This document shows, in pieces, positions 2,426-58,615 of a DNA stretch of 64,000 nt. The stretch covers positions 1 through 64,000 of the forward strand of contig QPMI01000521.1 of assembly GCA_004431415.1 (NCBI GenBank). The letters are read 5' to 3'. The translations under genes and the position numbers were made by a program. The DNA comes from Cyanophora paradoxa CCMP329 (taxonomy: Eukaryota > Plantae > Glaucophyta). Under the pieces are notes generated by a model. It saw nothing but the letters and a program-made list of their open reading frames with translations. It did not search any database and had not been told where the DNA came from. Positions within the stretch are counted from its first letter, which is position 1; every line of letters starts with the position of its first letter.

Positions 2426-2479
2426 AATCAAGGATCATTGGTGAATTTTTTATGTTGCAGTATAATAAAAGAGATAATC

Positions 2480-8699: not shown

Positions 8700-8764
8700 A
8701 TAAAACGGAATCAATACTTATACTGTGAATTTCTAATTTTTTAAAACCCTTACTGTAAATGGTT

Positions 8765-8910
8765 TGTGTGACAGGTGTGACAGGTATTTTAATTGACTGT
8801 GACGGGTGTGACAGGTGTGACAGGTGTTTTCAGGAGTCTGAGGATTTTTAAAAAGTTTAAAAAGTTTGAAAATAGGTGTCACACCTGTCACACCCGTCAC
8901 ACCCAATTAA
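8765..8910. repeat. Palindromic TGTGACAGG iteron array around an AT-rich core (origin-like)
   Basis: 9-bp repeats in opposing orientation flanking an A/T-run spacer, right after the helicase gene. Confidence 0.75.
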
Positions 8911-8997
8911 CCACAGACTCCCCCCTGTGGGTCGATCACTTTTCCGAAGAATAATCGAAGGATATCAAAACGTATCGGAAATCGGTGTGTTGTGACA

Positions 8998-9053: not shown

Positions 9054-9320
9054 ATGGATTATTTCGATGAAATTCGGCGGCAGCTTGTCGAAAAGAATGA
9101 TATTGCAGAGGTGGCGGATTATATTGCAAAGATCAAAGCAATTAACGGTAGACCCTATCAAAAGAAGCGTGTTTATGCAAGCAGACTCGACACAGTAAAT
9201 GTATATGTCCCAAAGGCACGAATGTGCGAATTATCAGAACCTGAAAAATGGGAAATGCGTTTAAAATGCCCAAAAATAATATGTTCCCTTAAAGTAAAAG
9301 ATGCCCCGCCAATCCAATAG
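9054..9320 (+). CDS. Hypothetical viral protein
   Basis: ORF downstream of the early motif, overlapping the pPolB start. Confidence 0.45.
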   Translation: MDYFDEIRRQLVEKNDIAEVADYIAKIKAINGRPYQKKRVYASRLDTVNVYVPKARMCELSEPEKWEMRLKCPKIICSLKVKDAPPIQ

Positions 9321-12300
9321 AATCATCAAAGAGAAGAAAAACGAAATACTCGGTCTTTTAGGAACCCTTTTAGTTACTGGTGATATTACAGAATTCGAAT
9401 ATGATCGCCAGGCAGCAATCTTGGATAGGAGACCAAGGTTATCTCAACTCACAGAAATTACAAATCGCCTCTATGATCGTTTTGAGAAAATGGAGGATTT
9501 CAGGGATGAAGGTTTAAGGTTGGGAACAATTGAACCCGAGATTGAGGATGGGGAAGCAATGAACAAAGCATATTCTTGGTTAACCTATCGAGCAAGAGGG
9601 GAGGTTATCCAAGATGGGATTGAATTCTTGGAGAGAATTGCACCCACTCTACCTCAGAGACTCAGACAGAAACTCCAAGACCTGAGAGCAATTGAGACTC
9701 GGTTGACCTTCATTTGTAAATTCACCAAAGTGAGTGATCCAAGGGTGTGGATCACCAAATTCATTTACAGTGATTACTTTGTCATCACAAGATCACGAAA
9801 TATTGATGTTGAACTGCGAAATGCCCTTCAATCCATGCAGGAGCAGATGATGCAAGTTGACAGTTACAGACTGGATCGCATTGAGATGCTCAGAGTAGTA
9901 ATAATGTCCTATGCTCCTGTGGGTGGTTGCTTCTTCTCAACACCTGAGTGGATTGGATTAAAGAGAGCAACTGTGAATGTGAAGAATATTGATGGTCAAG
10001 ACTGCTTCAAGTATGCAATCTTGGCTTACCTGCACCGAAATGATATTAATAAACACAAGAGCAATGAACCCAGCCAGTATAGAAGATGGTTGAACGAACT
10101 CAATTTCGAGGGCATCCAATTTCCAGTTGCCTGTGATGCAGAGGTGATTGATCGATTTGAGGAGCAGAACCCTGAACTGAGTATCAACATTTATGGGGCA
10201 GATAATACTGCACAGTGTTTCTATCCTCTCCACCAATCCAGCAACCCCAGGAGAAAGACCAAGATTAACCTTTTATTAATCGAAAACGAAGAGGATGATA
10301 GAGGGCATTATATCACCATCATGTCTCTGAGTAGACTTCTGAAAACCACCTTTGATAAAGCCCATGATGGTCGCATTTATTACTGTGAGACCTGTCTGTC
10401 TCGTTTCAGAACTCAGGAGAAGCTGGATGTACATATAGAAGCGAATCGCTGCATTGATTGGAGGGAGAGCAAAGGTAAATGCCCGAAATCTGGAAGTCAC
10501 ATTGCATTTGGTCTGCAACACCTTCGCAAAACTGTGTGGCTTCCCGCTATCTGCTATGTGAAAATGGATAGTCACTCGGTTCCAATTGATGAGAACCGCA
10601 GTAAGAGAGAGGTAAAATCGGTTTCTCTAACAGTTGTGATGGGGGATGAGGTGATCTCTCATTATTTTGATGGATCAGATCCCCTTGGTGCTCTGTTTAC
10701 CACTCTCACAGAGATCAGACCCAAGTAATTCGCACTCTATTCACCAATATTCCCATGCATCCACTCACAGAGGAGCAGAAAGCACAATACAAGATCACTA
10801 AACACTGTTATATCTGTGCTGAACGATTTACCCATGAGAATTTCCCAGTGAGAGACCATTGTCATCAATCAGGAGCTTTTATTGGAAAAGCATGCCGAAA
10901 CTGCAACCTCCACAGGAGAATCTCAAAGCAAACGAAAGTAGCAATTGTGGTGGATCACATGGATGAATGTGGACACGAAATATTCCGCAAAATTGCACAG
11001 CAAGATGATAAACTTCGTGTTGAGATCCTGAGCAAGAATTTCGATCAATACCTCTCTCTGCAATGGGGCATGTGGAAATTCATAGATGCTTCGCACTTCA
11101 TGGACTTCCAGGCAGTGGATGCAAGTGATCTAATGGGTAAATTCCAGAAATTCCGAGAATTGGCGTTTTCCCAATATGGATTAGATCCTGCCCATTATGT
11201 TTCGGCTCCTGGATTGTCCTGGGATGCAATGCTAATTTACACCAGAGCAAAGATCGAGCAGATCAGTGATGTAGGGCAATAAGAATTTATTGAGAGGGCA
11301 ATTCGAGGTGGGTTTGCTACAATGCCTACTCGATATGCAAAGGTGGAAAACCCAGATGACCATATAGTTCTCTTGGATGCAAATAATCTGTATGGTTATG
11401 CTCTCATTCAAGAACTGCCCATTGGAGATTTTCGTTGGGAAGATGTCACAGAGGCACTTAAAGAGACCCAAGGACGAAGTGCCTTTATTGAAGTTGACCT
11501 GGAATACCCACAAACTCTCACAGATCATTACGATTTTCCACTTGTAGTTAATAAAGAACATGTCACCACCGAAATGCTGGGTGGGTATCAACAAAAACTA
11601 CTGGATATCACAGGTGAGAAGATAAGCAAAGACCCCAAACTCACAGCAACATTCTCGCCCAAAAACAACTATGTGATTTCCCAACCTCTCTTGATCTATC
11701 TTGTGAGCAAAGGTATTATAATCACGAAGGTTCACAGGGTTCTCTCATTTGCAACCTCTGCATTTATGAAGAGTTATATTGATCTAAATACGAAACTGAG
11801 GCGCCAATCTATGTCCAGATTCGAGAGTGACTTCTTTAAATTAATGAACAATGCAATCTATGGTAAATGCCTCGAATCATGCAGGGGTCGCTCTGTGGTT
11901 AAGATTGCTAACAGTGAGAAACTCTGCAAGAAATATGCTGCAAGTCCACTCATCAAGGCAACCAATGTATTAAACGAAAAAGCTGTTGCCTTTGAGATGT
12001 ACTCAAAGCATGTTCACTTAGATAAACCTGTTGCAATTGGTGCTTTTGTGCTGGATTTCGCGAAACTCCATAATAGCAGGTTCTTTTATGATGTGGTGAG
12101 GAGAACTTGGGAAACAGCAGAGCTACTATTCCATGATACAGATTCTTTCTGTCTACTGCTGCATACAAATGATCTAAATAATGAGATGAAGCGAATTTCT
12201 GAACACCTGGATTGCAGTAATTATGATACTGCCCACCCTCTCTATGATAGGAGAAATCGCTTGATTCCAGGTAAATATAAAAACGAGTTTCCCAATGCAA

Positions 12301-12581
12301 AGATTGTGGAGTATGTAGGTCTGAGATCGAAACTCTATGCTTTCAGAACTGAGACCTTTGATAAAATAAAAATGTCTGGGACTTCCTCCAAAGAGGTTCA
12401 CTTTGATGATTTCAAAAGATGCTTGTTTGAAGGAATCACCAAAACAGTAGCAGTAGTAAACAAGCGAAGACAAGACCACAACCTATATGATTTGGAGAGC
12501 AGAAGGGTGGCTCTAAACCAACTCGATAGCAAAAGGAAGATATTAGACGATGGAATTCACAGCATTCCATTTGGGCTCTAA
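9301..12581 (+). pseudogene. Protein-primed-type family B DNA polymerase with vOTU-like and endonuclease-VII-like Zn domains (frameshift ~10723, in-frame TAA 11280)
   Basis: DCFKYAI...GHY; CYIC...RDHCH...CRNCN; AIRGG, LDANNLYG, KLMNNAIYGK, HDTDS, GLRSKLY. Confidence 0.9.
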
Positions 12582-12764: not shown

Positions 12765-14259
12765 ATGCCTTCTACACAAATAGGATTGAGACAACCACCC
12801 AGAATTGTTAGAAAAGAAGCAATTGAAGATCGAGGAATATTCTGCCCATCACAGTTCCAGTGGAGGAGAAGAGCAGTCGAATATTAAAAAGATCAGAGAT
12901 GGTCAAGCAATTAATTCCAGAGACCCTCCCAGCTGAGACAGCACCAAAAGAGTCGAAGATTGCTAAGAAGTTCTATGATCCCAGAACAGGTTACAAGGGA
13001 TTTACTGCAATGAGACAGGAACTACCAGAGGAGAACTACAAGAAAATGAGAGAATGGTATGATAAGCAGGAGGTTGTCCAAATTAATGCACCTACCCTAT
13101 CTCGAAAGAGAGATCCCATGATTCCAATTAGGCAACCCCTTGATACATATGTGATTGATCTGCTCTTCTTTCCTGCATACAAAAAGCAGAATGATGGTTA
13201 TGATACATTTATGAGTGCAATGGAATCAACCCTAAGAACTGGGTTCATCATTCCAATGAGAGACAAGAGTGCTCTTACTACACTTGCAGCATTCAAGCAA
13301 CTTGAACAGAGAGTCCCCAGACCAATTGTTCGCATTCAGAGTGATAGTGGAAGCGAATTTACCAATGTCTTATTCACAGATTATCTGGGAACCAAATTCA
13401 TTGAGCATCAACTAAGTGATGTTGCAGATCACAGAACCCAAGGTCGGATTGAAGCCTTTAACAGACAGATCAAGAGATTAATCACAAACTACTGCATTGC
13501 AAATAATACTGCACGATTTTTTGATGTGTTGGGTGATATTGAGTATAATTATAATAATACCATTCACTCTGCAACCAAGAGAAAACCAGCAGAGACCACA
13601 GAAGCCCACTACAAAGAGATTGTGAATATGGAGGATCAGAGATTCAAGAAATCGATTGAGTATCTTGATGCTCTGAAACCTGGAATGTTTGTGAGAGTGA
13701 AAGTTGAAAAGAACCCATTTGCAAAGCAGGGAGTTAATTGGTCTCGAATTGTTTATAGTGTGGAGGGCAGAGAGGGCTTCAAGTTCAGAATCAGAAGTCC
13801 CAGTGGTGAGATAGTTGATGGTAGATTCGCTTTTCATGAACTGCTGCCCATTAAAGGCGTTGAGTATCATGAAACTCCCACAGTGGATGCTCTTGAACAG
13901 GCAAAGGAGGAAGCCAGGGTTGATTCAGCAATCAGAAAGGAGGGCATAGAAAAAGCAAGTGAAGTACCAAAAGAACCCTTACAGAAGCAAGAGCACAAAA
14001 GAAGGGTAGAGTAGAGAAAGAATTAAAGAAGTTGACCATAGCAGGAACCAGAAATTATCAGAAGTTAACAGTCAGAGATGGTATAATGACTTTTCAACCA
14101 CCAAGGAAACATATACTGCACCCCAAACTCGATTCAATCTACGAAGTGGGCAGAGGAAATAGATTAACAACGCTTTCGGAATCTCTTAGACCTCTGGCGA
14201 ATTTTTCTCATTTGTCTATCTTTTTCAAGAATTTCCAAGAAGAAAGTTTCAAGGTTTGA
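12765..14259 (+). pseudogene. Retroviral-like (rve) DDE integrase of Polinton type (frameshifts ~12835 and ~14010)
   Basis: YVIDL, IQSDSGSEF, RIEAFN, YNNTIHS, SH3-like PGMFVRV. The tail (KKLTIAGT) matches the element 2 integrase once a 5-bp TAGAG duplication is removed. Confidence 0.88.
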
Positions 14260-14446: not shown

Positions 14447-14570
14447 TTATTTTGTTAGTGCCCGATCTCGACGAAACCTGATAGCCGCTGGCGAGAGGAT
14501 TCCGAATCTGCTTTCAGAATTGAAAACGGAGCAGTTGGTAATAAAATACATATGTATGACCGAGATTGAT

Positions 14571-14680
14571 GGAGTTTCAGTGAAGTTTCGGTGAAGTTTC
14601 GGTGCGAAGTTTCGGTGAAGTTTCGTAGCGAAGTTTCTATGAAGTTTCGGTGAAGTTTCGGTGAAGTTTCGGTGAAGTTT
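14571..14680. repeat. 11-bp tandem repeat (GAAGTTTCGGT)n
   Basis: About 9-10 imperfect units read directly. Confidence 0.9.
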
Positions 14681-14827
14681 TGAGTGACGTCATGAGTGTC
14701 GTTTCGGTTCGCGAACAATTAAGTGGACATGGCGGCGTCCCGTCGTTTTTTTGAAAAGGTGTCCTCGAAAATCGTGCCCCGTCACTTTCGTGAACCGGTG
14801 TCCTCGAAAATATATCTTATCCTGATG

Positions 14828-15063
14828 AAAAAAATTGGTTGCGCGTCATCGCAACCATCATCGCAACCATGGTTGCATCATCGCAACCGTCATCGCAACC
14901 ATGGTTGCATCATCGCAACCAGGTCGCGCAACCACTCAATCGGAAAAAAATTGGTTGCGCATCATCTCAATAGTTAAAAAAATGGTTGCGCGCAACCAGC
15001 GCAACCATGGTTGCATCATCGCAACCATCATCGCAATCGCAACCATGCAGGTCGCGCAACCAC
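14828..15063. repeat. CATCGCAACC/GGTTGCG satellite-like repeats
   Basis: Three blocks starting AAAAAAWTGGTTGCGC with multiple CATCGCAACC units. Confidence 0.85.
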
Positions 15064-15520: not shown

Positions 15521-17061
15521 TCATACACTTCGAATAAATGCACCTGTGACATCCACTCTCATAGTTGGGGCATTTATATATACAATTGGATAAATACGAA
15601 TAAACCTTGTCCTCAGAGGGTAGCCAATATAGAAAACGTCTTTAATAGAGGTGGGATACCCAGAACTGTATGAGACATCACCACTGTTATGGGCATTATT
15701 AATTGTTTCACACATGAACACTCTATTCACACCTTCATACTTGATAAATGACCAGGAAACACCATCTTGTGAGGTTGCAACATTGAAGGTCTTAACAAAG
15801 GCATTGGTCACACCAGACCCATATGCAATTATAGATGCTACCTCATATATATATGGGAAGGATACTTGGAGATACTCAGTGGGAACACTCCATATCCCAT
15901 CAGGAGCAGATGCATTTGCCTCCCAACCTGTTAAAGAAGGTCTTGCTTTAAATGCCTCCCTTCCAATTTTTGATGATGAAGCAGTGAAAGCACCATCTGA
16001 TAGAAGATACCAGTTAGCATCAATGGGAGGTATGTTATTCAGAGTTGATGATATATAGAACCTTGCAGGGTTCTTGATTTCATAATTTGCAACCAGTAAA
16101 TCACAGAGTCTATCAATCATCACAGTGTTTGCTGCTATATACATTTCGGTTGCATCTATCATATCAGGGATCTTAGAGGTATCATCCAGGGAGTTTACTA
16201 TGGTCTTTGGAAGTGGGACAGAGAGTCTATAATATCTTGCATATCCCTGATCATCATTATATGGGAGAAACTCTTGCATCTTTTCCAGGGCTGAGAGTTC
16301 ACTTGCAGCCATCAACATATTAATTAATGGACTCCCAGAGGTCGAAGCAATCCATGAGAGAATGCCCCAGCTGTTGACATCTTCATAGGAAGATCCCACA
16401 TTTGGGGCATCTGTTTCATTGACCTCACCACAGGATATACTGATCACAATTATATCATCATCATCATCATAGATCTTTTTAGCATGGCTGTAACCACATA
16501 CACTGGGATTGTTGTTACCTGATATTGCACCATCAATTAGAGACATCCCATCATAGTTCACAGGTGAGAAGTAAGTAGGTGCAGCAGAGGTGGATCTTGC
16601 AGCAATCTTGCTGGGATGGATTTGTAGGAATTATCATTGGTGATAAAGATGGGCTTCATGCTCACAGTGTCAAAACTGGTGATCACCACATCTTTCAGAG
16701 AGTCTTGAATGAGAGACTCACCAGTAACAGTGAGAATGGCTGTCTCCAATGGGGTCACATCATACTTGGTGTTGAAGAGGGCATTATCTATTATATTTCG
16801 GGGATTTGCAAAGATTAAAGGCAGTTGATTGAGATAAGTGGAATGCAAATCGGTTGCAGTGAGTTTAGGTTCGTTTGGAAATTCGGGATTTTTCACATTG
16901 AGACCAATAGCAATTATCCCACCAGTGGATGTACCACTCACCAGGTCAACAAGGTCAATTACTCTTTTTCCTGTTCGAGTTTCGATTTCTTTTAGCAATC
17001 TCGTAATAATTATACCACGAGCTCCCCCACCTGAGAGACTGAGAATTACACGAAGGGGCAT
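15521..17061 (-). pseudogene. Patatin-like phospholipase fused to an F5/8 type C (discoidin) domain (one frameshift ~16600)
   Basis: LSGGGARG, GTSTG, DGA; C-terminal TASSS...YLQVSF...SQDGVSW...RFIRIYP...MRVDVTG. Homologue at 59957-61441 is a single ORF. Confidence 0.88.
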
Positions 17062-25058: not shown

Positions 25059-25460
25059 ATGAATACTCATCGAGGCTTCCATGTGATGCTGGATTACAAA
25101 TTCAGAACCCAATTAGCAGTAGGAGTGGAAGACTTGGAGACAACGACCAGGTGGTTAATGCAGTTCTTACAAACTATTATTCAAGAGCAAGGTATTCGAG
25201 TAGTTCACAAGCATTGCGAGATTTTCGATGGTGGTATTTCTCCTCCTGGTTTTGCAATGGTTCTTCTGCTGGATGAGAGCCACTGCACTGCTCATTGTTA
25301 CTCAAATGAAGGTATGCTGGCGATTGATATATTCAGTTGTGGATTAGAAGCAGAGAGAAAAACCACGAGAGTATCTCATGAGATAGATGAGAGAATAACA
25401 GGTGTGTTTTCAGGGTTGGAGAAATCGGAGAAACATAGAGTATTGCGATTTCCGAGTTAG
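25059..25460 (+). CDS. speD: Prokaryotic-type S-adenosylmethionine decarboxylase proenzyme (SpeD/SpeH family)
   Basis: GFHVMLD...F...PPGF...LLDESHCTAHCY...AIDIFSCG, with the ESH self-cleavage motif and the conserved CG. Confidence 0.85.
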   Translation: MNTHRGFHVMLDYKFRTQLAVGVEDLETTTRWLMQFLQTIIQEQGIRVVHKHCEIFDGGISPPGFAMVLLLDESHCTAHCYSNEGMLAIDIFSCGLEAERKTTRVSHEIDERITGVFSGLEKSEKHRVLRFPS

Positions 25461-25555
25461 TTGACACTGAGAAATTCAGAATTTCAGATGGTCTTACTGA
25501 AAATGGTCAGATAATCGGGTGTGACACCTATTTAATTGACTGTGACGCCTGTGAC
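25365..25555. repeat. Right terminal inverted repeat, part matching the window start (probably extends to ~26719)
   Basis: Reverse complement of 3-193. Confidence 0.9.
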
Positions 25556-25932
25556 AGGTGTGACACCTATTTTCAAACTTTTTAAAATTCTCACAAATTA
25601 CAGACTTCTGAAAACACCTGTCACACCTGTCACACCCGTCACACCCAATTAACAAAAGACTCTATTTCTTACTGAGATATTCAAGAATTTATTGTTGTCT
25701 TACTGAAAACAGTCTATGTGACAGGTGTGACACCTTCAAAATCCACCCAACAATAGTCGATTTCATGAATACCTTTCTGTCTTACTGAAAATGGTAAGGA
25801 GACCAGGTGTGACAGGTAGTTTAATTGAGTGTGACAGGTGTGACAGGTGTGACACCTATTTTCAAACTTTCTAAATTTTTCAAAAATGACAGACTTCTGA
25901 AAACACCTGTCACACCTGTCACACCTGTCACA
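25519..25932. repeat. Two subterminal copies of the palindromic TGTGACAGG iteron module
   Basis: Copies at ~25530-25652 and ~25820-25932, homologous to 8765-8910. Confidence 0.85.
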
Positions 25933-26045
25933 GACATTCTACCCCTCTTACTGACTTTCTCAAAAACAAATATATCTATTACTGAATATCATTTGAATAC
26001 TACCTGTCACACTTGAATTCAATTATTCTGTTTTATAGAACATAT

Positions 26046-26303
26046 GCAATCTAATCGATTGTTCAATTGGAGACCATGCAACTCTGTGACACTTTTTCGA
26101 TCTAAAATATAAATCCGCAATCTCATCGATTGTTTAATTGGACATAATGCAGTTCCGATATATTCCAATAGAAAATCCCGCAATCTAATCGATTGTTTAA
26201 TGGGAGATAATGCAACTCTGTGACACTTTTTCGGTGCAAAAATGTACATCAGCAATCTCATCGATTGTTCAATTGGACACAATGCAACTCTGTGACACTT
26301 TTT
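26046..26303. repeat. Four 63-72-bp subterminal direct repeats
   Basis: GCAATCTMATCGATTGTTYAAT...TGCAACTCTGTGACAC units start at 26046, 26117, 26180 and 26252. Confidence 0.85.
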
Positions 26304-26622
26304 GCGTTTTTCGATACAGAATGGGCGGTGGTCTACTTCAATACATGAGAGATATATCGAGTTTATGCGAATTTATGCAATTTAATCGCAATTATATCGA
26401 TCTTTAAGCAGTTTAATGTTAATCTATCGCAGATTTGTATGTAAACAACAAAGTACATAATCAATCGATATAAGATCAATTGAATCTATCGAAGTTTAAT
26501 CGAAAATATGCATTTTGGTAAACGCGTTTTCATTTTTAATACAAAGTTTGCATTATTTTATACAAAGTTTGCATAAAAAGTTTAAGAAATTAATCGAAAA
26601 ATATGTATTTTAGTATTAAATT

Positions 26623-26719
26623 AACACATATTGAAAAACGAATTTAAATCCAGAGTGAATCGAGATCGCGAAGCGATCGAGATGAACGAGGGATTTAAAT
26701 TCGTTTTTCAATATGTGTT
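26623..26719 (+). other. Terminal 97-nt hairpin with GCGAAGC loop and tandem G.A mismatches
   Basis: Perfect 29-bp arms 26623-26651/26691-26719, centred on 26671, at the AT/GC junction. Confidence 0.85.
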
Positions 26720-26751
26720 GGGGGAGGCAGTGCCTTACGCTCCCCATCGCC

Positions 26752-29700
26752 ATGCCTGGCCCTGCGCCGGGGCCTGGGCCTTTGCGCGTCCGATCGCCGA
26801 TTTGATCACGAGATTCACGAGGCTGACGCATTCGAATTCGCAGCCGCGGCCAGATCCGGAGGGCCGGGAGCACGCCTGCGAATTATAGGAATTTCGCAAT
26901 GGGGCTTCTCCTGGCCGCTGTGGGTGCGTTTCAGCTACAAATTTCGCATATCTGAAATTCTCCTTTTGAAGTTGCAATATTGGCATTCTTTGACAGTTTA
27001 AAATTTGGAGTTCGAATTCTGAAAATCAGCTGCGCATGCATATGCAGATCTAGATCTGGACAAGAGAAACTCTTCTAGATCTCCCCGTTGCCTGATCTTG
27101 ACGGCGCTGACGCCTGCGCCAGCGGCGCTGCTGGCGATCGCGCTCTGGCGGGCCCCCCTCGCGCTGGGCCCGGCGGGGGGCCCCCTCCCCGCGCAGCGCC
27201 TCGCGGCGCTCGGCGGGGCCCTCGCGGCGGCGGCGGCGGCGTGCGGGGCCCTCGCCCTCGCCCTCCTCCCGCGCCGCGACGACGCGCCCCTCCGCCGCCA
27301 CTGGCAGGCGCGCCGCCCCAGCCCCGCCCGCCCGCCCCGCTGAGCCCCGGCGCCCGCAGGCGGTCGCCTGCGCAGCCATCCCCACGCTCTACGGCGCCGC
27401 CTTCTGCGTCTCCTGGGTGCGCCCCGCGGGCCGGAGCCGGCGGGGGCGGGGCGGGGCGGGGCCGACGGGGGCGGGGCGGGGCGGCAGGCGCTGGCGATGC
27501 CGTCGTGCCTGCTGGTGGCGGTGGCGGCCGGCTCGCTCCTCTCCTCCTCCCTCGTCCGCCTCCGCTGCCTCCAGGCCCGCCCCGCGCCCCGCCCCGAGCT
27601 CGATCTAGCTCGCGGCGCCGCGTGCGAGGCGGCGGGGTCCGGGGCGCAGGTGCTGGCGGTCAACGGCGTCGGAGTGGCCCTCGGCGCCGCCCTCGCCCTC
27701 GCCCTCGTGCGCACTCTCCGAGCGCCCTCGAGCTCAGACGTGCTGACCCGGGCCCGCCCGCGCCCCTGCAGAGCGGCTCGGAGCCGGTCCGCGCGTGGGA
27801 GATCGGTGCGTACTCGCGAGGCGGCGCCTCGCGATTGCAATTGCTTATAAGCTTCGCGCCGCTGACGCCCTTGCGGTTCGAATTCGACTCGGCGAGTAGC
27901 TTTCTCCCAGCCGATCTGCCTCGCCGCCTTCGTTTTCGGAGCCGCCGCCGCCCGCCGGGACGAAACCGAATCGCGCGAGGTGATTTTTGGCGGCATTTGA
28001 AATTTATATTATATATATTCCGGGGGATCCGGCCTTCAATTAAATTTCTGCTGTTATATATATATATAATGGAAGCGTGGGAATAATTGGCCTAGCCTTG
28101 GCGTGTGGCCAATTTATATCTGACGCTGGCCATGGATTGGCGGCGTCGGTTTTAATTTGCAGCGCTTCATGCGGAGCGGGGAGGCGCCGGCGGAGGCGGA
28201 GAGCTTCCGCGAGGAGTACGCGCCTCTCTTCGCCGAGCTCGCGGTCCGATCCCGGCCCGAGCCCGGCCGGCTCCAGGGCCGCCCGCGCCCGAGCCCGCGT
28301 CCTAAGGCCGGGACGCGCGCAGTCGTTCCGGTTCCTGTCGGCAGAGATGGAGCTCGCCTCGCCGGTCGCCTCCGCCATCGCCGTCCTCGCCGACCTCCTC
28401 GACGCCCTCGTCGCTGGTACGAGCTCGAGCCGCGGCCGGCCCCGCCGCTGGCCCCGCTGACAATGAGGGACGCTCCCGCAGAGGCCAGCATCGTCCACGC
28501 GGCCGGCGCAGCCGCAGCCCTCCGGTGCCCTCCGATCCCAGGCTTGAGCCTTCCCATCCAACTCTAACTCCCGGCCCCTTCACGACCAGGCACCTCCTCA
28601 CGTACGCGAAGAAGGCCCCCTCCGAGGATTCCGCGACGGTTGAGGTCCGGCACGGGAAAGGGCGCCGGCCCCTCCGCGGGTCGCGCCGCGCTGACCGTGC
28701 GCGTGCCCACTCTCGCAGGGGGCGATGGAGGCGGCGGAGGCGAGCGGGGAGAGCGACGTGATCGTCCAGTCGTTCCAGGGGTGGATGAACGCTATGGTCC
28801 GTCCGCGTTCGCTCGCGATCGAACCTCGCGATCGCGGATCGCGATATCGATCGATGCATCTATTTTCGCGCCCATATATAAAATAATTCACCGGTCGAGC
28901 AGGGCGCGGCGCCGCCGCGCATGCAATTCCGCTCGATGTCCTACAAGCGCAAGCCCTCCGTCATCCTCCACGGGCCCGTTCCGGGCCTCTCCCGGGCCCT
29001 CCTCGAGCCGGAGTCCGATGCGCTGGGGGAGGCCCTCGCCCCCGCCTGCCTCGTCTCCTGGGAGTCCTTCGACGTTTTCAAGGTTCGCGTTCGAATGAAC
29101 TCTTATATAATTATAATTATGTCCTTCATAGCCCTGAACTCTTATATAATTATAATTATGTCCTTCATAGCTCTCTAGATTAAATTTCCCATAGATCTCT
29201 AGGTGCCCCCGCCCTCGAGCTCCCCTCCCCTCCGCGACTCTTTCTTCTTCTTGTGCGAGGCTGCAGCTGAGCGACCTCCACCGGCAGCTGGAGCAGGCGG
29301 CGGGGGGCCGGCCCCTCGAGCTCCTCGCGTGCGCCCCGCCCGCCCCCTCCCGCCGCCCGCCCCGCCCGGCCCGGCCCACCGGGGGCGCCCTCGTGCAGAA
29401 TGCACCTGGCGGAGAAGCACCGCGTCTTTGAGGCCTCGGGGGCACGCCCCGCCCCGCCCCGCCCGCCCGCCCGCGCCGCGGCCCGTTGCGAGCGGCGCGG
29501 CGCATGCGCAGGTGGAGGCGGCCAAGTTCCGCGCCTTCGTCTCCGCCGTCGAGGCCGGCTACCAGAAAGTGGTCCGCCCCGCCCGCCCTCGATTCTTCCA
29601 GATATGGGCCGTCCGCCGCTGACGCCGGCCCGGCGCCAGCCGTACCACACGGCGACGCACGCCGCCGACGTCCTTCAGGTGAGCGGGCGCCGCGCGCGCC

Positions 29701-32416: not shown

Positions 32417-33329
32417 GCCAGTCGACGTCGCCCCATGAACAGCTGCAGCTGGCCCCTGTTCTAATTTTCGATTTCTGAATTTCTGATCCCGGGGAGTCCC
32501 ACTTAAACAGCTTGCCTTACGTATACTACGTATACTAAGTTATTCTCGAGCCGGTTGTAGACCGTCGGACTTTCAATTTCTCATAATTACAATCATGATC
32601 ATGATCAGTTCTGCCTTGAGCTTTCGCAAAAGTTTTAAAGCAGTTGTTTCAACAGCCGTATTTAATATTTAGTGTGTATTCCGATCGCGAGGTTCCGGCC
32701 CCACCCACAGCTGCAGTGACTTCCGAATAACGCGTGCCTCGGGAGCTTGCCGCAGTCTTCAGTCTTTATTACCTGTGATGTAGTTTAACGCAGTACAGAA
32801 ATTTCAACGATGCTTCGGCCTGATGTGCTCATACGCATGCGCAGTATTAGTGTTCCGGCAATTGCCTACAGGATCCCGGACACCGGCATGCGCAGCTTGT
32901 ACCTGGCAGCTTGTAAAAGAATTCAATCCGGAAAGCGGCGCCGGCATGCGCAGATAAATATAACGCCTCGTCTCGCGAATATTGCGCGAATTCGAATATT
33001 CGTATATCATATACCGATATCGTCTCGCAAATACTGCGCGAATTCGCGATCGAATATTCTTTTCGCGCCCGGCCCTTATTCCCTCGAACCTCAGGGTCTC
33101 GAAATTAATATTGTTTATCCAATGATTCATTCTCGAGGGGCCCTAAAGCTGGACCTAATCTGCAATTCAAATCTGGTACTGGTGCCGATTGATTAGCCGG
33201 AGATGACCGTCGGACATCTTCGCCCCCCGGGGCCCGGGCCCCCTTGGGGCTGCGACTGCGATTTTAAATCTCAGCCTGCAGCAGTTTGTCTGCAACCGCA
33301 TGCATATGAGCAGACAGCGTGCCTCATGA

Positions 33330-36300
33330 TCAGTCCTCGGGGCCGCTGGGGGCGGCGAGGAGGGCCCGGGCGCGGCGGAGGCGGCCGCGGGCCTTCTCGG
33401 CGAGGGCGGCCCCCCGGGGCCCGGGCCCCGCCGGCGCCGCCCCGGGCTCGAGCTCGCGCAGCGCCGCCGCCGCGTCCCGTTCCGCGTCCGCCGCCCGCGC
33501 CCGCCCTGCCCCGCCCCGCCTGAGGCCGGCCGGGCGGGGCCGGGCGGGGCGGGCACCGCCGAGGGCGAGGTTGCACTCGGCGCGGTTGCCGAGGGCCGCG
33601 GCGCGCGTGAGGCGCGCCTCCGCGGGGCAGAACCCGAGCACCGCGCCGTAGACCAGGGCCGCCAACTGCCGCCCGGCCGGAGCCCCTCAGATCACAGAGT
33701 TCGAATGCATAATAACGGACCACATAATCTTTGTCTGCGAAGTGCTTGTTGCCAACATTCTGCGACCCATTGAGAAAGGGGGAAGGAGTCTTATTCAACC
33801 TAAAAGCAGAGGCCGGGCCTTGCCTTGAGGTTCTCGGCCTGGCGGGCGGCGAGGGCGGCGAGCCCCGCCTCCAGCGGGGGGCATTCGGCGGGGAAGTGCC
33901 CCCGCAGGCGCGCGTGCGCCGTGAAGAGCGCTGCGGGGCCCCCGCGCGAACTTTCAAGCATATGGAGAATTAAAAAAGAATAAATAATCAAGCTGGAGCA
34001 CAGTGCAACAAAGCGGGCGTGAAAGTGGATGTGGTCTCGGCGACTTGCAATTGAACGTTCTGTTAACGTTAACGGTGTTTATGATCGCGCTGAGCAATAT
34101 GGAAATCGGAATGAAAGCGGAGTTCGAACCAGAACGTTGACGCCGTGGCCAGGGACGCTGCACATGCCCTCTTCGGGGTTGTCCAGCCCGAAGAGCGAGT
34201 AGCCGCCGTGAAACGGTCCGCTTCTCCCGCCCATGCAGACAGGCAGCAGCTGCGCGTGCATATATGCGGCGTTCTAAATGGCGATCGCTCTTTCAGAGCG
34301 CCGGGGCACCCTCTGGAGGAGCGGGGCGTGGGGCAGGACGGCGCGCGCGTGCTCCGGGAAGACGCAGAGGTCCGCCAGGCAGGCCCCCAGCTCGAGGCCC
34401 TCCTGCGTGTGCGCAGGGGCGAATATACTAGGGGCCCGGCCGCGATTCTCGCGCCGGGGGTGCAAGGGGGGAATCTGGATCGAATGAAAGAGTAGTAGTG
34501 GCACGAACATGCACGGGGCAGATGTAGATCGACCCCGGCCCAGCGCGCGCGGCAGGTTGAAGTAGTAAAGATAGAGACAGATTATATGTGATTGTAAAGA
34601 GTAGAAAAGGGCTGATAAGCAGACGCTGCGATCTACAGGAGACAGCTGATAAGCGAGGAAGCCGAAATCTACAGGAGACAGCTAGCTATAGGGAGAACTG
34701 GTTCCATGCAGAACCGCGGAAGGAATTCGAAGACCGGAATTAGAGAGAAGTTGGTTTCCAGGCTTCAAGTCGAGGAAAACTGGTCTTCGCTAGATCCGCG
34801 GAAGGAATTCGAAGATCGGAATGAGAGAGAAGTTGGTTTCCAGGCTTCAAGTCAAGGAAAACTGGTCTTCGCCCTCGAAAACCTTTTTTTGCATGGACGG
34901 CCGCAGCGACAAACACGTGTCGCTGCAACCGAATTTCGGCACATTTTTGTTGCAAACTGGACCTCGAAAACGGCCTCATAGAAAACTTTTGGCTGAAGCG
35001 AGGGAACGGGAAGCAAGGGGGGAAGACCTGCGGTCTTCTTTCCCCCCTTGCAATCTAAATCATATATCAATTGTATAATCATGATGTCGATCAATATATA
35101 TTGATCGGCGTCACCAGGGCCGGCCCGGCCGACTACCTACGGGGAGTTCGCCTCACCGGCCGGCCGCGGGCTCTTGCAATTAAATATTTCAATTGCAAAC
35201 TGAAATTTAAATATGCAATATTAATTGAATTGAGCGCACCCAAACACGGGACTGGAGAGCCTGTACCAAATCCTCGGACTTCGGCTCGTCCTCTTCAACA
35301 AGGCAGCAACTGCGGTCCGGGGCGAAGCCAACTTATATGAGCAGAATACACGCCTGGGCTTCACTCAACGTCCTCACTTCTTTGCTGCACTCAATGTCCA
35401 AGAGGATGTGCGCTGTCGCCGGTCCTCGTCAAAGTGGAAGACGACCCTGCGATCGATATCGCGACCACGCATAGGAGGGAATTCGAAGCCAAAAGGCGAT
35501 CGCAGAGGACGGCAAAGCACAATTTAATTATAGCGCTAGCGACGCTGGCAGAGGAAAAGCTGTAAATAAAATATCCGGACACGAGGAAAAAAGCACGATT
35601 CCGATCCGGATCCGGGCAATGTACAATGCGGGCGGGCCCGGATCCGGAGCCCTCGCGCGCGCACCACTCGAGGGCGCCGGCGAGGACGGCGACGGGCTCG
35701 CCCGGGGCGGCGAGGAACGCCGCCTGCGCCCCGCGCGCCGCCGCCAGCTCCGCCCCGTGCCCCTCGTGCCCCGCCGCCACCAGCCGAAGCCGGCCCCCGC
35801 GCGGGGACGCGGCCGCAGGAGGCCAAGGGGCGGCGGGAGCCTCGGGGGCGGCGGCGGCCGGGTCGCCGATCACGACGGGGGCGAAGAGGAGCTGGCGGAG
35901 GCAGGCGGAGGCGTAGAGGGGGGTACTGTCCTCGGGGTAGAGGCGGGGCACGGGGCGGGCGGCCGAGGCGAGGTGCAGGAGGGCGGGGACGAGGCCGGGG
36001 TGCCGGGCCAGCCGCAGGCGGAGCTCGCCGTGCGGCGCCGCCACCGTGCACAGCTGCGGCCGCGTCAGGGGCGGGCAGAGCAAATTTTAGAGGCCCGGCT
36101 CGGCCGAGAAATCGAATTTCAAAGGCAGAACGTTTGTCAAGAAGTGAGCGACGGATTTGTGGGTCAAAGCGGTGAAGCTGCAAGAATATGCATAAGAGAT
36201 CCCCGCAGTCAGCTTGATTCGCACGCACGTGCACGCACCGCGGGGCGTACGCCGATACTCGCTTTGGCGTTGGAAACATTTTGCACACCTCCGGCGCTGC

Positions 36301-37691
36301 GCGAATATTAATCCGAAAACCAAAGCCTACGCGAAATATTTCACGAATTAGAGCATGCGCACCTTCTCGAATTTCTTCGAGGAGGCGATCGGGCCCGATG
36401 CGGGCCTGCTCGAGGACCGCGTCCAGGAGCCCCGACGAGAAGAGGCGCTCGGAGAAGGCGAGCGACGTGCGCCGCAGGAGGACGATGGCCAAGTGGATCG
36501 CTTCGGAGCGGAGCTGCGGGAACGTGGCCGTGGGGGGGTAGAGCGGGGTGCGGCGTGAGTCGCGACTGGCATGCGAGCGCGCAAATGCAGGCCATATCAT
36601 GACATAAATAGATGAAGGAAATTAAATAAAAATAACATCGCCAAGTGCCAATTAGTATGATAAGATATCGATGCAGATATTGCGCGCGCGCGCGAGCCTT
36701 CGTCACTCCTTGCTTCATCGTGCGGGCCAGGCTCTCCACGATGTCCGTGTTCTCATGAATCTTGCAATTAGCGCGCGTTCATGATCAAAAGCATGAAATC
36801 GAATGTTTTTAATCGAAGTATACGTATACGTAGCTATATCAATAAATACTATGATACATGCGCATGCCATGATGCAAATCGAAATCGAAACCAAATTAAA
36901 GCGCACGGAATCCAGTTCGTCGCGAATGGGGTCATAAACATGCTCGTGATCACGAATGTAGGAGTGGAGGAACTCGCACGCCGCGGCGGCGACCACTGGC
37001 CTCTCGTACGCGCCGACGAGCTGGCGCGCGTCTGTGTAGGCACGCGCGAACGCACACGCGCGACGAACGCACCTCGGCAAGCAATGAAAGGGCCGCCTTG
37101 AAATCGTGCACATGCTCGGGCCGCCCGGGCCGCTGACGGCGCCGGCCGTCTATTTTGAAATCTTCGACGATTGCACGCGCCCATTTCTGATCATAAACGC
37201 GAAGGTCAATATAAATCATAATTATACCGAATTGAACGTGCATGCGCATGCACATAGTGCACGTGCTCAATCGAAGGCGCCGCTCTCGCGAGGTCTAGAG
37301 CTAACTGTAGAGCTAAATTAAATATTAATCTATACCGTCGGATAAATATTAATCTATACCGTCGGACATATTTCATCGCGGGCGCGCGGGTCGCGATCGG
37401 CGCCCGCGCTCCGATCGATTTTCGCGCACCAGCTTTTCGCGCCCGCGAGCGCTCTGATCGATTTTCGCGCATGCGCACCAGCTTCGTGGCGAGGCCACAC
37501 GAGGGAAGCGTCATGAGCTTCTCAGATGCGATCCTCACCCGCTCCTTGGGCGCGCATTTGGCGAAGCAGCGCAGGCAGCTGCAGCCACGCGCACAGCGCG
37601 CCGCGGCCGGCCCCGTCTCGCATCCTTCCGACTCCCCTTCGCTGTCGGTGTCCCAGTTGAGCTTCGCGCGCTCGGAAGGAGCGAGCGGCAT
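33330..37691 (-). CDS. Host multi-exon helical-repeat protein with C-terminal TPRs, copy A (5' end uncertain)
   Basis: AENLK-NVGNKHF...Y...AAALGNRAEC...AERDAAAAL...KA TPR pattern. Inverted paralogue of 38060-41227. Confidence 0.6.
34430..35055 (-). mobile_element. Non-autonomous Helentron-like (HINE/DINE-1 architecture) insertion in an intron
   Basis: 13-bp subterminal IR TGCAAGGGGGGAA (34461/35040), internal IR forming hairpin 35013-35051, stem-loop 34435-34458, internal ~77-bp duplication. Absent from the paralogous intron. Confidence 0.5.
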
Positions 37692-38059
37692 GGTTTTGGG
37701 GCGCGATCGCCGGGTACAGCAATTGTCAAATTTGAAAGCGTACCCCGCGGCCGGTCCGGAATCCGGATCCCGGAGTCCCGGACGATTCCGCCGAGCTCGA
37801 GCGCGCGACACACTCGTCGAGGACGCCGCCCTCCGCAACGTTAACGTAAACACGACTTGCGAAGCGCCGGGTGCGCGCGGGCTGCCCGCAGTCATGGGGG
37901 CGCGTCGCAGTCATGTTGACTGCAGTCATGGGGGCGCGTGCGCGCTCAGAAACTCTTGGAATGCGCTTGCCCGCACTTCAGTCGCTCGCCGAGGTGATAT
38001 CAACAATGCGAGCTCGAGCCGCGGCCGGCGCCGCGGGGGCCGGGGTGGTGATATCGCGA

Positions 38060-41000
38060 TGCTTGACCATTCTTGCATGCGCAGCTTGCCGGCATGTACG
38101 AGCGGCCAGCAGTCGCTGCGAAGGCTTTGAAAACTCTGCAGGAGTACGTGCGCGATTTCGAATTGTACGAAGGCGAAGAAGGCGACGTCGACGGCTTTCC
38201 GAATGCCGTGCACCGCGGCGCCGCATATAATTACCCTGAACCGCATTGACCTCAAGCTTGCTTAGATCTACGAGAAAACGAAAATCCTGGAGAGCCTCGC
38301 TCGCGATCGCACGCTCAAGCACGGCGTGACGAAGGTTCGAATTCAATCCCCGCGCGCGCGCCTGCAGCGAATCGATATCGAAATTCGAATTCAAAGCTCC
38401 TTGTCGAATGATCGTCGCTGTGCTGCAGCTTCGCTTCGACGCGATTCACACCGCCGTCCCCCTTGTGCCGCGCACGTCGCTCGCGTTCTCCGAGCGCCTC
38501 TTCTCGTCGGGGCTCCTGGATGCTGTCCTCGAGCAGGCTCGCATCGGGCCCGATCGCCTCCTCGAAGAAATCAGAGAAGGTTCCTTGCATGTCAAAATCC
38601 TATCCGTGCCTTCAACAAGCGAGCGCACATTTCGATTTTTAAGTTCGGCCTCGCGCGCAGCGCCGGAGCAGTGCAGAATGTTTTCGAGCATCCCGCAGCG
38701 TGTGTCGGCGTACGCCCCACGGTGCTCGAGAATCAGTTTGGCCAGCCAGCCAGCTTAAACTTGAAATTAAAGTCCCGGCCGAGGCTTATTTTGCCCTCAC
38801 TCCCCCGCGCCGCAGCTGCGCCGCTATGATTCAAGTGTATCAATGCGACGTCCACTTTTGCAAAAAAAAAATGCGCCGCTATGATTCAAGAATCCGTTGG
38901 CCACTTCTTGACACACGTGCCTTCTGAATTTTCTCTGCTGAGCTCCTGCCCGCCCCTGACGCGGCCGCAGCTGTGCACGGTGGCGGCGCCGCACGGCGAG
39001 CTCCGCCTGCGGCTGGCCCGGCACCCCGGCCTCGTCCCCGCCCTCCTGCACCTCGCCTCGGCCACCCGCCCCGTGCCCCGCCTCTACCCCGAGGACAGTA
39101 CCCCCCTCTACGCCTCCGCCTGCCTCCGCCAGCTCCTCTTCGCCCCCGTCGTGATCGGCGACCCGGCCGCCGCCGCCCCCGAGGCTCCCGCCGCCCCTTG
39201 GCCTCCTGCGGCCGCGTCCCCGCGCGGGGGCCGGCTTCGGCTGGTGGCGGCGGGGCACGAGGGGCACGGGGCGGAGCTGGCGGCGGCGCGCGGGGCGCAG
39301 GCGGCGTTCCTCGCCGCCCCGGGCGAGCCCGTCGCCGTCCTCGCCGGCGCCCTCGAGTGGTGCGCGCGCGAGGGGCCCGAGTCCTTCGAATTCGATTTTC
39401 TGATCCGACGCGGGCCCCGCTCACGCTTCCGCCAGGATCATACTTGAGGAGGACTTGCACGAGCGCTCCGCCTGGTTCGGGGCCGCCTCCATGTGCGCGC
39501 TCGCGTGTGCCGGCGCCGCGTGTTTAATTTCGTATGCCATGCGTTCCGCCTGCACCTGGTCATGACCACGCCCATCGCCGGCGCTGCGGCAGGTGCTGCC
39601 TCCACAGTGCGGACGGGCCCGAACCCGGCTCGCTCGAGAACGCCGTGGAGGCCCGCGCAGAGGTGAACGCTCACCCTGGACGTCCCTTCCCTCCCGCCTC
39701 CCCCTCTCCCCCTCCCCCTCCCCTCGCCCGATCGCGACCTGCCGGCCCGCAGCAAACGCGCGAGCTCGCCGCGTGCCTGGCGGACCTCTGCGTCTTCGAG
39801 GAGCACGCGCGCGCCGTCCTGCCCCACGCCCCGCTCCTCCGGAGGGTGCGAAGCCCGCTTCCTGAATAATCGAACCCCAGGCTCAAGCTGTAGATTAAGA
39901 GAAGCGCCTCAGCTTTTCGCGGTCTGCGTGGGCGCGGATTCCGACCCGATCTTCGGGGGCTACGACGGCGAGTTCGACCCGGACTTCGGGGGCGTCCCCC
40001 ACTACAACTGGAAGGTGCCAGGCTGCGGTCGCTTGCACTTATATTTACAGGCGCCGATCACGCGAATTTTAATACATGCATGTGCTGAAGCCGCCCGCCC
40101 CCTACCCCGCCCCCCCCTCCCCCCCCCCCCTCTCCTCCTCCCCCCCCCTCTTCGCCTCGGGAGAGTCTGAGCTTCGGCCGGCAGCACGTCCGGGACGGCG
40201 CCGTCCCCCTCGTCTTCACGAACGCGCTCCTCCACTGTGCGCCCCGGTCCCTCTTTATCTGTCTGTGCCGAGGCGGCGCGGCCGATGGTGATCCTGGCGG
40301 CGGATCCGGCGCTGGCGGGCCGGGGCGCCCGGCCGCGCGCCTCTGGATCTAGATCTGCTGTGGGGCGGCGCCGCTGACCGCTGCGCGGGGGCCCCGCAGC
40401 GCTCTTCACGGCGCACGCGCGCCTGCGGGGGCACTTCCCCGCCGAATGCCCCCCGCTGGAGGCGGGGCTCGCCGCCCTCGCCGCCCGCCAGGCCGAGAAC
40501 CTCAAGGCAATTGCAAGCCCCGGCCTCTAGATCTGCTTCCAGATATCGATCTAACTATAATCTTTGAATTTCCCCGGGGGGCCCCTCTTCTTAATTAAAT
40601 CGTTTCCCCTTTCTTAATCAAATAGTTTCCGCTCTCTTTATTGATTCGTTTCTAGATCTAGATCTACTTCAAATTCCCCGGTTTTTATGGTTTATAATTA
40701 TTGAATCGTTTCTAAAGCGTTTCGCGCGCAGGGCATCGGCGACGAGCACTTCGCCGAGAAAGAATACGCGGTCCGCTCTAATTTGTCTTGCTCGCATCGC
40801 CCGGCCGGCAGGCCGGCAGTTCCGGCAGTTTGCCGCGTCCGGATCCGGATCCGGATCCTGATCCGAGGGGCGCCGGCCGGGCGGCAGTTGGCGGCCCTGG
40901 TCTACGGCGCGGTGCTCGGGTTCTGCCCCGCGGAGGCGCGCCTCACGCGCGCCGCGGCCCTCGGCAGCCGCGCCGAGTGCGCCCTCCTCCTCGGCGGTGC

Positions 41001-41227
41001 CCGCCCCGCCCCGCCCCGCCCCGCCCGGCCGGCCTCAGGCGGGCGGGGCAGGGCGGGCGCGGGCGGCGGACGCGGAACGGGACGCGGCGGCGGCGCTGCG
41101 CGAGCTCGAGCCCGGGGCGGGGGCGGCGGGGCCCGGGCCCCGGGGGGCCGCCCTCGCCGAGAAGGCCCGCGGCCGCCTCCGCCGCGCCCGGGCCCTCCTC
41201 GCCGCCCCCAGCGGCCCCGAGGACTGA
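38060..41227 (+). CDS. Host multi-exon TPR protein, copy B (5' end uncertain)
   Basis: Exons homologous to copy A, with blocks near-identical at DNA level. Confidence 0.62.
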
Positions 41228-41587
41228 TAGTGAGGCACGCTGTCTGCTCACTGCAAAGCTTGCAGCTTGTAAATATTTATAGATTGCATAGAACGACTTT
41301 GACTAATTGAATATATGAGTGCTGAGCTGAAGCTTGCAGTTGGGAGTTGAGGTGCCTGAAGCTTTAATTTCGCGTTTGGTCGCATGGTGCTTATATAATT
41401 GGCATCTGAGCCTGCTTGCCAGCTCGCTCCCCCGCCAAGACGCTGATCATGAGCACGATATAGATCGTGAAACGCTCTTCGAGAAGTTCTTCGCTTCGAA
41501 TCAAAACTAAGCTAATGGCGGATTCGAGAACAACTAGTACTAGTCCAGTTGGAGGCCTAGGGCCGTGCGAGGGGGGCCCGGGGTCGC

Positions 41588-45489: not shown

Positions 45490-46686
45490 ATTCGAATTCA
45501 ATGATTCGAATCCGAACCTTGCGCGTGCAATCGAAGCGCCTCCGCCCCCGCGCCTAGGCCTGCATGCGCAGCTGCGATGCAGTAGCAGTGCGATCTTGCG
45601 AGCCACTGCTGCGCTAGCGCTCTTGTTAGTAAGTTGTTTCAGTCTTAATTCAAGGCTGGATTCGGCCCTGGAAGGCCCTGAAACTTGGCTGGAAGGCTGC
45701 CTTAGGCTGGCGCCGTTACTTCGGAAAAGGAAGGACCCTAGCACTGGCTAGCAGCTGCAGTGGTGCCAGACTGCCACTGGGCCAGTAGATACGGTTATCG
45801 ATGATACCGCCAAGTCGGCGCCAACTCGATTCCTCGTGCGTGTCGTTCGAACCTCCTAGCCTAGTAGGCCCCCCAGGCTTGGCAGGCTAGGCCAGCCTAG
45901 GCGTCATTGCCGCGTCAATGCCGGCGCCCGTCACCGCGTCCAAGCGAGTTGAAGGCTTGAAGCGACGCGCGCGGCGCGCAGCCGCGCGCTAGCGCTGCGC
46001 CGCGGCGCATGCGGGCCTGCGGGGCAGTGCGGGCTGCGGGCCTGCGGCGCGCGTCGACTCCCGGAGTCCGTCGAGTCGTCGACGTCGGACGTCGTCGAGT
46101 CGTCGTCGACTCGTCGACTCGCCGTCGCGCCGACTTGCAGCGCTTGGCGACGAAGTTGGGCCTTACTGTAGAACTAGTTAATTTAGTACAGGAAAATAAT
46201 TAGTACTTCGCCAAAAATGCCATTAAAAAAAATTTTAGCAGCTGGTAAATCTTTATATAATTAGTAGGTCGGTCTTGACACTGTTGACAGGGCTTTCGAA
46301 TGGCGGAGACGGGACTACCCCTATAGCTACAAATTCTCGCGATCGGCTTTAGCAGGCGGGAAATATTTAGTAGATCGATCGCCCAAAAACTTTTACTACT
46401 ATAAATTTATATGCAGCCCACTAAATATTTCTAGCCTAGTGGCCCTAGTATAGCTCTCCAGCTGCAGTAGTTGACGTCGACCGTCGGACTCGCCGTCGAG
46501 CCGACGTCGAACCGTTGAACTTCCCAAATTTTTAAAACATGTACACGTGCACGGTGCACCGTGCACGTGCGTGCGCTGCGCATGCGGTGCGCGGCCGGTG
46601 TTGCAGTGCGCACAGCAGCGCACTGCGCGCGCGCAGCGCACGTACTGCGGCATATGCATGCAGGCTGATGATGCAGCGCTACCCGG

Positions 46687-53780: not shown

Positions 53781-53889
53781 TTCTTTGGTTTTCTCGTCAC
53801 AAACAATGTGCGAAATCTTTTTATGGCATAAATCGCAGGTTTGTGTTGCGTTAAATTCCGAACATAAAATCCGAGATATAATTCAAAGA

Positions 53890-54174: not shown

Positions 54175-54203
54175 AGAGATCTCAATCTCAGATTGTAAAG
54201 AAG

Positions 54204-55364: not shown

Positions 55365-55373
55365 CTTATTTTC

Positions 55374-58588: not shown

Positions 58589-58615
58589 CTTTTTTATATC
58601 AGTTAGAGAATAAAA

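Follow-up and report, generated by a model that had tools for sequence, protein, structure and literature searches.

A hairpin with G.A pairs on one strand at the terminus of an endogenous Polinton-like virus of Cyanophora paradoxa

Results

Where a virus-like block in the genome of Cyanophora paradoxa CCMP329 meets host DNA, the sequence can be folded back on itself, and the question raised by this locus was whether the fold-back is a genuine viral terminus and what form such an end would take on free viral DNA. We analyzed 64,000 nucleotides of contig QPMI01000521.1 (the window; assembly GCA_004431415.1) together with contigs of public runs. Of 24 runs listed, four were compared over positions 25900-27100 and three over 26570-26760, and the contig pieces referred to below are the 32 of 629 and the 24 of 119 listed for these two intervals, respectively.

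Base-by-base pairing placed the symmetry axis at ∼26671 and reproduced the fold described in the initial annotation, a symmetric structure with a GC-GAA-GC cap (26668-26674, + strand). As first counted, including 26719, there are 29 Watson-Crick pairs joining 26623-26651 to 26691-26719. Inward from this stem, the tip (26652-26690, + strand) consists of A.G, G.A and A.G pairs, two Watson-Crick pairs, G.A/A.G, three Watson-Crick pairs, G.A/A.G, six Watson-Crick pairs and the GAA loop. All non-Watson-Crick stem pairs (7/7) were G.A or A.G, and three tandem GA/GA steps were located at 26653-54/26688-89, 26657-58/26684-85 and 26662-63/26679-80 (+ strand), as had also been annotated. On the complementary strand, the same positions give T.C pairs and a TTC loop; the strand carrying the G.A pairs is only the one ending 3' at the terminus.

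Contig depth fell to single copy immediately beyond the hairpin, and a GC-rich, single-copy host flank (26719-27100) was recognized from depth and composition. Among the pieces listed, host-like loose ends started past 26718 in runs X9 (one) and X3 (another) and past 26719 in X9 and X4. The single-copy junction piece began at 26689 in X3 and at 26690 where a second flank starting with T existed. Because other insertion sites diverge after 26718, the virus most likely ends at 26718, with T26719 belonging to the host. The perfect pairing of the annotated 97-nt hairpin with a 29-bp stem was correct, but the element's own hairpin most likely comprises 95 nt (26624-26718, + strand, with the 3' end of the G.A strand toward the host) and a perfect 28-bp stem formed by the inner arm (26624-26651, + strand) and the outer arm (26691-26718, + strand).

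Folding as DNA gave −35.3 kcal/mol (z, −13.1), and none of 200 shuffles (0/200) folded as well. The hairpin ranked first in the window, with a score of 29.5 versus 23 for the next structure, and in a G.A-tolerant scan it scored 40 versus 22 for the runner-up. The inner arm had pair probabilities of 0.94 to 1.0 when the whole terminal inverted repeat (TIR) was folded, and the 3'-terminal 28 nt were fully paired, forming a primer-template junction. Rfam gave no matches in 25300-27000. The probability that seven mismatches would all be G.A was 2e-6 to 2.4e-5 under the composition of the element, TIR or hairpin, 3.7e-4 under the tip's own composition and 6e-4 to 1e-2 when the four blocks were treated as units. 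A subterminal control palindrome (25532-25652) had G.A at 0/14 mismatches on the + strand, and two further controls (8789-8910 and 25821-25936) had mixed mismatch spectra in an ungapped comparison. The GTGAAT/ATGAAC block was not a plain direct duplication, since its flanks differ yet are complementary.

Two of the three tandem GA steps had a pyrimidine-GA-purine context on both strands, and tandem steps of this type form sheared pairs (PMC10085684). GNA is the sole class among the 64 triloops to form the GC-NNN-GC mini-hairpin, which has a Tm of 70 to 76 C and is exonuclease resistant (PMC13037366). The asymmetry between strands computed with ViennaRNA was just 1.4 kcal/mol, and hence published G.A chemistry, not the computed energies, carries the argument for strand specificity.

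Two other putative viral tips, B and C, were seen as loose ends of 16 to 30 letters among the contig pieces listed. Tip B (X3, X4 and X9) had GC-GAA-GC units in tandem, up to three per line, preceding an outer arm identical to that of the main form. Tip C (X3 and X4) followed the inner arm and read GGA, GC-GGA-GC, GC-GTA-GC, GC-GTA-GC, GGA; a loose length of 57 was recorded for it, corresponding to the tip plus the 28-nt arm. All units in the two tips (6/6) were GC-GNA-GC. The tips differed at 3/21 positions, all at the unpaired N, for which the probability calculated by hand was 1/1330, or ∼0.014 if the two GTA units represent one event. Folding by hand gave either a stem bearing three mini-hairpins or a single stem interrupted by GNA/GNA internal loops. 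A variant stem with five substitutions in register (X1 and X4) and an X4 copy with six other letters at a depth of 273 were also detected, one arm being visible in each. Tip variants differing only at the free N point to selection for sheared G.A folding of the 3'-ending strand. Overall, there was good sequence evidence for selection on a one-strand G.A/GNA fold, and the earlier proposal that these Polinton-like viruses have an end folded on one particular strand was supported by variant tips that keep the G.A/GNA design.

The identical hairpin was present in contigs of all four runs compared, and contig depth corresponded to ∼39 identical ends per single-copy locus. Relative to the junction contig, the depth of the core hairpin was 38-39x in X9, 38-45x in X3 and 76-95x in X4, an excess that may be due to GC bias. 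In X9, depth climbed toward the end, from ∼14 copies at 26433-26514 to 24, 31 and then 39. This rise indicated that no other part of the TIR is as conserved as the hairpin, which is common to subfamilies with diverged TIR interiors. Loose ends at 26612 and 26619 belonged to subfamilies, one with a variant stem, whose TIR departs from the window sequence just before the hairpin.

Polarity was assessed on the assumption of 31-letter words, for which an inverted tip would appear as a branch past 26651 and a solo hairpin as a merger at 26624. The X9 piece 26616-26688 was unbroken at a depth of 3698, without alternative letters, and the X4 piece 26623-26681 was likewise unbroken. As side branches at depths of 11 to 12 (0.3-0.5%) were retained in the X9 contigs, these results indicated that there was no inverted 'flop' form above ∼0.3-0.5% among integrated copies of the main family in this run. 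Strand-changing joints were absent among the pieces listed for the four runs. A host-like loose end before 26620, detected in 3/3 runs among the pieces listed, is explained most simply by a normal junction that was assigned to the wrong arm. The initial annotation had considered that the 97-mer might be a dispersed MITE; it is not, as the ∼39 ends were joined to viral TIR sequence and solo copies were not detected in X9, where the piece was unbroken at 26624. Non-autonomous elements may carry longer pieces of the TIR. The terminal hairpin is a real feature and the true viral terminus.

The carrier of the hairpin is an endogenous, multi-copy Polinton-like virus (PLV). Bases 1-26718 form a block of 40% GC within DNA of 55-78% GC and encode an A32 ATPase, a D5-type helicase, PolB pieces, an rve integrase, patatin, discoidin, H-lectin and C1q. 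The right TIR spans ∼1.35 kb (25365-26718), an extent taken from its inner border to the end. Positions 3-193, the inner part of the left TIR, were 100% complementary to 25365-25555 over 191 bp, indicating that the window begins inside the left TIR and that the hairpin closes the right TIR; the left terminus and ∼1.2 kb of the left TIR lie outside the window. Subterminal repeats at 25491-26313, comprising TGTGACAGG iterons, the palindrome at 25532-25652 and 57-72-bp spaced repeats, are a candidate origin. An internal copy of the TGTGACAGG iteron palindrome was found between the D5 helicase and PolB genes (8747-8920) and is possibly a second origin or a module border.

A capsid-like gene in frameshifted pieces (2284-3846, + strand) probably encodes the major capsid protein, judging by its position, the size of its relatives and its conservation. 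It matched no Pfam family, and only 6 relatives at an E of ≤0.001 were detected among 1.84 billion proteins. The nearest was a Cyanophora paradoxa protein with 56% identity, which by itself points to a glaucophyte alga as the probable host. One relative is 456 aa long, and a 54% identical copy is present in a second element. The A32 packaging ATPase (3909-4691, + strand; PF04665, E 7.5e-12) is followed by a Prim-Pol-like piece and the D5-type helicase in frameshifted pieces (6436-8699, + strand; D5_N, E 2.3e-8; DUF5906, E 1.7e-7), with the Prim-Pol match upstream of D5 below the cut-off (E 0.14). The rve integrase (12899-14014, + strand) retained D, D and E, with a Pfam E of 0.0014 that was also below the cut-off. 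Pfam matches of the 35 ORFs, several of which had no family, included no HUH nickase (NS1/Rep), no resolvase or protelomerase and no Tpg/Tap family. Window letters 25971, 25978, 26017 and 26598 disagreed with nearly all contig depth (A26598 reads T); such disagreements (25940-26598) and the many frameshifted viral genes make assembly errors probable. An S-adenosylmethionine decarboxylase gene (25059-25460; PF02675, E 6e-11) has its final 96 nt inside the right TIR. A 240-bp element with 41-nt inverted ends (46687-46928) was also observed, and the first virus contained two short tracts of tandem repeats (14558-15036). PLVs of Cyanophora paradoxa with H-lectin and discoidin-patatin genes have already been catalogued (PMC12220804), and 'hairpin' and 'palindrom' do not occur in the text available from that report.

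The PolB gene is in three pieces (9301-12581, + strand) encoding a terminal protein (TP)-like domain, an OTU domain, a degenerate exonuclease and a polymerase with motifs A and B kept. A sequence search of the PDB with PolB gave nothing significant, and a single-sequence fold of the N terminus had a pLDDT of 31.9. A structure model was built with 8 aligned relatives (mean pLDDT, 64) and predicted a beta-alpha-beta-beta-alpha-beta domain at residues 79-205. This domain matched the Y-family LF/PAD with Z-scores of 8.8 (rmsd 3.0, 106 aligned) and 8.2, and residues 214-345 matched OTU (Z 7.4, rmsd 3.2, 105 aligned), these Z-scores being near the background range. Viral matches were to adintovirus, MELD, bidnavirus-like and mavirus polymerases. 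The modeled layout is the TP-vOTU arrangement described by Krupovic et al. (10.1101/2024.03.18.585575).

The catalytic Cys and His of OTU were retained. Ser188 was located between helix 2 and strand 4 of the TP-like domain, where the linking residue is placed by Krupovic et al., who report a Gly or Pro near all linking residues (10.1101/2024.03.18.585575). The predicted linking loop was four residues shorter than in 7/7 full-length aligned relatives and had no Gly or Pro, and the TP may be dead. A contrast with protein-capped ends had been drawn at the outset, and it is weakened, since PolB keeps the TP fold and an intact OTU dyad. Exonuclease motifs I-III were lost, with 272 residues from Exo I to motif A versus 384-413 in relatives. 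The use of this loss as proof of a patch-only polymerase was dropped because mavirus pPolB has also lost the exonuclease, beside a separate SF3 helicase (10.1101/2024.03.18.585575).

Database searches were performed with parts of the hairpin and with the viral proteins. In IMG/VR, the 15-nt tip core extended to a long stem at none of at least 121 loci, triple GCGAAGC occurred at 8 loci, none mirroring the terminal hairpin, and the variant-tip pattern gave no match; the exact 27-nt outer arm gave none in JGI metagenomes. Capsid, integrase and D5 queries detected no relative in IMG/VR. PolB matched 8 loci at 29-36% identity, and one metagenome locus at 34% was retrieved with the integrase. A comparable G.A hairpin was seen in 0/9 distant PolB/integrase loci within the retrieved DNA, whose true ends are probably missing. 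Since these searches yielded no relative whose end could be seen, the known range is one host genome so far.

Discussion

We rate at about even the chance that the 95 nt form a folded 3' end cap (telomere) on free linear viral DNA, similar to that of Streptomyces and completed by protein priming, which is the model we favor. The evidence for this mechanism comes from integrated copies in contigs, from which we infer all steps on free viral DNA. Replication would leave the 3'-ending strand at each end single-stranded, either as a displaced strand or through a lagging-strand gap. This strand would snap back into the 28-bp stem, stabilized by sheared G.A pairs and the GNA mini-hairpin, and the folded 3' end would thereby resist nucleases. 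Priming on the folded end by the TP-OTU-PolB would then restore the 5' strand, in the manner of end patching in Streptomyces. The rve integrase would join the completed, open duplex end to the host, and this proposal would account for the shared polarity of integrated copies. Open, TP-primed ends predict one polarity, and the fixed polarity argues against closed telomeres of the pox type. The short linking loop without Gly or Pro counts against protein priming. Furthermore, a perfectly paired 3'-OH beside a template is an ideal self-primer, and hence fold-back extension would compete with protein priming.

The 3' overhangs of Streptomyces have GNA loops closed by sheared G.A pairs, their terminal bases fold back on an inner palindrome, and they are protein primed (PMC4513846, PMC5449611). 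Like these Tpg/Tap telomeres, the viral terminus appears to have GNA loops and G.A pairs on the 3'-ending strand, and the variant tips, if folded as three GNA mini-hairpins above a fold-back stem, would resemble the Streptomyces 'rabbit ears'. For an internal origin of the Streptomyces type, a helicase, a weak Prim-Pol match and iterons are present in the element. Differences are that this is a eukaryotic, integrating virus, that the TP is fused to a B-family polymerase and that one long stem with tandem GA steps stands in place of seven packed palindromes. The likeness would be one of working in the same manner, not of membership, and is known here from sequence alone.

The initial annotation regarded the system as undescribed. 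Terminal palindromes at TIR extremities were reported in July 2026 for virophage subtypes 1, 2, 5 and 6 and PLV subtype 4 of Halocafeteria, mostly elements without pPolB, and hairpin priming was proposed for them (bioRxiv 10.64898/2026.07.28.741278); the description as undescribed is accurate only in part. As in those elements, the palindrome described here lies at the TIR extremity beside the host junction of an rve-integrating element. The Halocafeteria palindrome is 52 nt (subtype 5), unlike the 95-nt, G.A-only hairpin of single polarity that accompanies a TP-OTU-PolB. The words 'mismatch' and 'flip' do not occur in the available main text of the preprint, which treats how most PLVs start replication and excise as an open question. 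G.A-only or GNA ends, fixed polarity or pairing with a TP-bearing PolB in PLVs or virophages were not found in the literature searched, which covered few subscription journals and main texts of preprints. The available portions of PMC6061790, 10.1101/2022.07.28.501842 and 10.64898/2026.10.13.758929 contained nothing on PLV end hairpins, and inverted repeats are treated as a helicase origin and recombinase substrate in PMC11296320. The element shares TIRs, A32, rve and TP-OTU-PolB with Polintons/PLVs and mavirus, and it resembles mavirus in combining a lost exonuclease with a separate SF3-type helicase; it differs from other Polintons/PLVs in its divergent capsid and folded G.A terminus.

The main rival account, which is less probable and which we hold tentatively, is fold-back self-priming, in which the 3' hairpin itself primes synthesis, as it does at parvovirus ends and as modeled for the Halocafeteria elements, and the TP is decaying. 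The integrase would nick after 26718 and link the resulting 3'-OH to host DNA, and fill-in by the host would unfold the hairpin; such joining of one strand would yield a single polarity in integrated copies. The 28 perfectly paired 3'-terminal nt at the primer-template junction and the shortened, Gly-less linking loop are consistent with this account, and the same model has been proposed for the terminal palindromes of other PLVs and virophages (bioRxiv 10.64898/2026.07.28.741278). Self-priming accounts best for the fully paired 3' terminus and the short loop, but it requires that resolution be asymmetric or that integration be selective. Inverted isomers are the usual outcome of rolling-hairpin or dimer resolution, and none was seen in the ∼39 ends. 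A single polarity would need an asymmetric nickase, whereas an HUH protein was absent among the 35 ORFs scanned, and the TP fold, Ser and OTU dyad have been retained. The left-end hairpin of autonomous parvoviruses has a single orientation. It is also a 3' fold-back, whose likeness to 'rabbit ears' has been noted (PMC4513846); unlike parvoviruses, this is a dsDNA virus with a capsid, ATPase, PolB and integrase and no NS1/HUH nickase among the 35 ORFs. It is doubtful, though conceivable, that a PLV lineage is replacing its protein-primed ends with a DNA-structure telomere, with a decayed TP loop, priming by the G.A/GNA fold-back and insertion of the folded end by one strand after nicking by rve. 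If true, this would be an independent invention, by a eukaryotic virus, of the end architecture of Streptomyces and parvoviruses.

A role solely as an integration, excision or packaging signal is unlikely. Here the stem would be a binding site for integrase or ATPase, the G.A tip would aid cruciform extrusion or protein recognition, and there would be no role in priming. The hairpin does adjoin the host junction, the rve DDE is intact, and mismatches of poxvirus hairpins serve assembly and not replication (PMC8956199). However, a cruciform folds both strands and leaves the G.A-only design of one strand unexplained. Integrases act on duplex ends and are not known to need a single-stranded mini-hairpin, which also argues against this role.

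A covalently closed flip/flop telomere of the pox, asfar or N15 type that unfolds upon integration, part of which had been suggested by the initial annotation, is very unlikely. The length and imperfect tip are similar to such telomeres, and only integrated copies were sampled, among which one isomer could have been integrated selectively. The absence of the inverted isomer in X9, where no flop junction exceeded ∼0.3-0.5%, and the lack of strand-changing joints among the pieces listed for four runs argue against such telomeres. A flop strand would carry T.C pairs, closed telomeres resolved from dimers yield both isomers and would not favor G.A on one strand, and no resolvase or protelomerase was present among the 35 ORFs scanned. 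Poxvirus telomeres share an imperfect terminal hairpin with conserved mismatches (PMC8956199) but differ in having inverted isomers and extrahelical loops in place of pairable G.A mismatches.

Chance, an assembly artifact, a repair scar or a junction MITE is highly improbable: the window assembly does have errors (frameshifts and A26598, which is T in nearly all contig depth) and accidental annealing was raised as an alternative by the Halocafeteria authors (bioRxiv 10.64898/2026.07.28.741278), but such origins are largely refuted by a hairpin found in 4/4 runs compared, at ∼39 identical ends, with no solo copy in X9 and with variants that keep GNA.

Protein priming and hairpin priming are directly testable with the 95-nt oligonucleotide, the natural variants that mark tolerant positions and the cognate polymerase and integrase. 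If the folded 3' end cap is correct, a eukaryotic dsDNA virus would join the short list of natural replicons apparently selected for sheared G.A pairs and GNA mini-hairpins.

Several other structures were observed. A second PLV (49093-64000) has a related capsid-like gene (54%), an ATPase, patatin, a different pPolB that is typical for its Pfam family (PF03175, E 7e-59) and an rve of its own. A search upstream of it detected no G.A hairpin, the best structure being a 26-nt perfect palindrome (46544-46569). In IMG/VR, a 16,073-bp phi29-like phage (Phi29_MCP, E 6.8e-66) has inverted, GC-rich, multi-hairpin ends (1-200 and 15900-16073), and close to the right end its 3'-ending strand carries four GCGAAGC units. 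Phi29-like phages are known for protein priming, and these ends are possibly a parallel to the algal-virus terminus. Tandem (GCGAAGC)n arrays of 3 to 18 units were detected in six AT-rich viral contigs of IMG/VR, two of them named GVMAG. Host DNA at 33307-41250 contained nested inverted repeats, with six pairs of 112-439 nt that were 85-99% complementary, in a large fold-back duplication.
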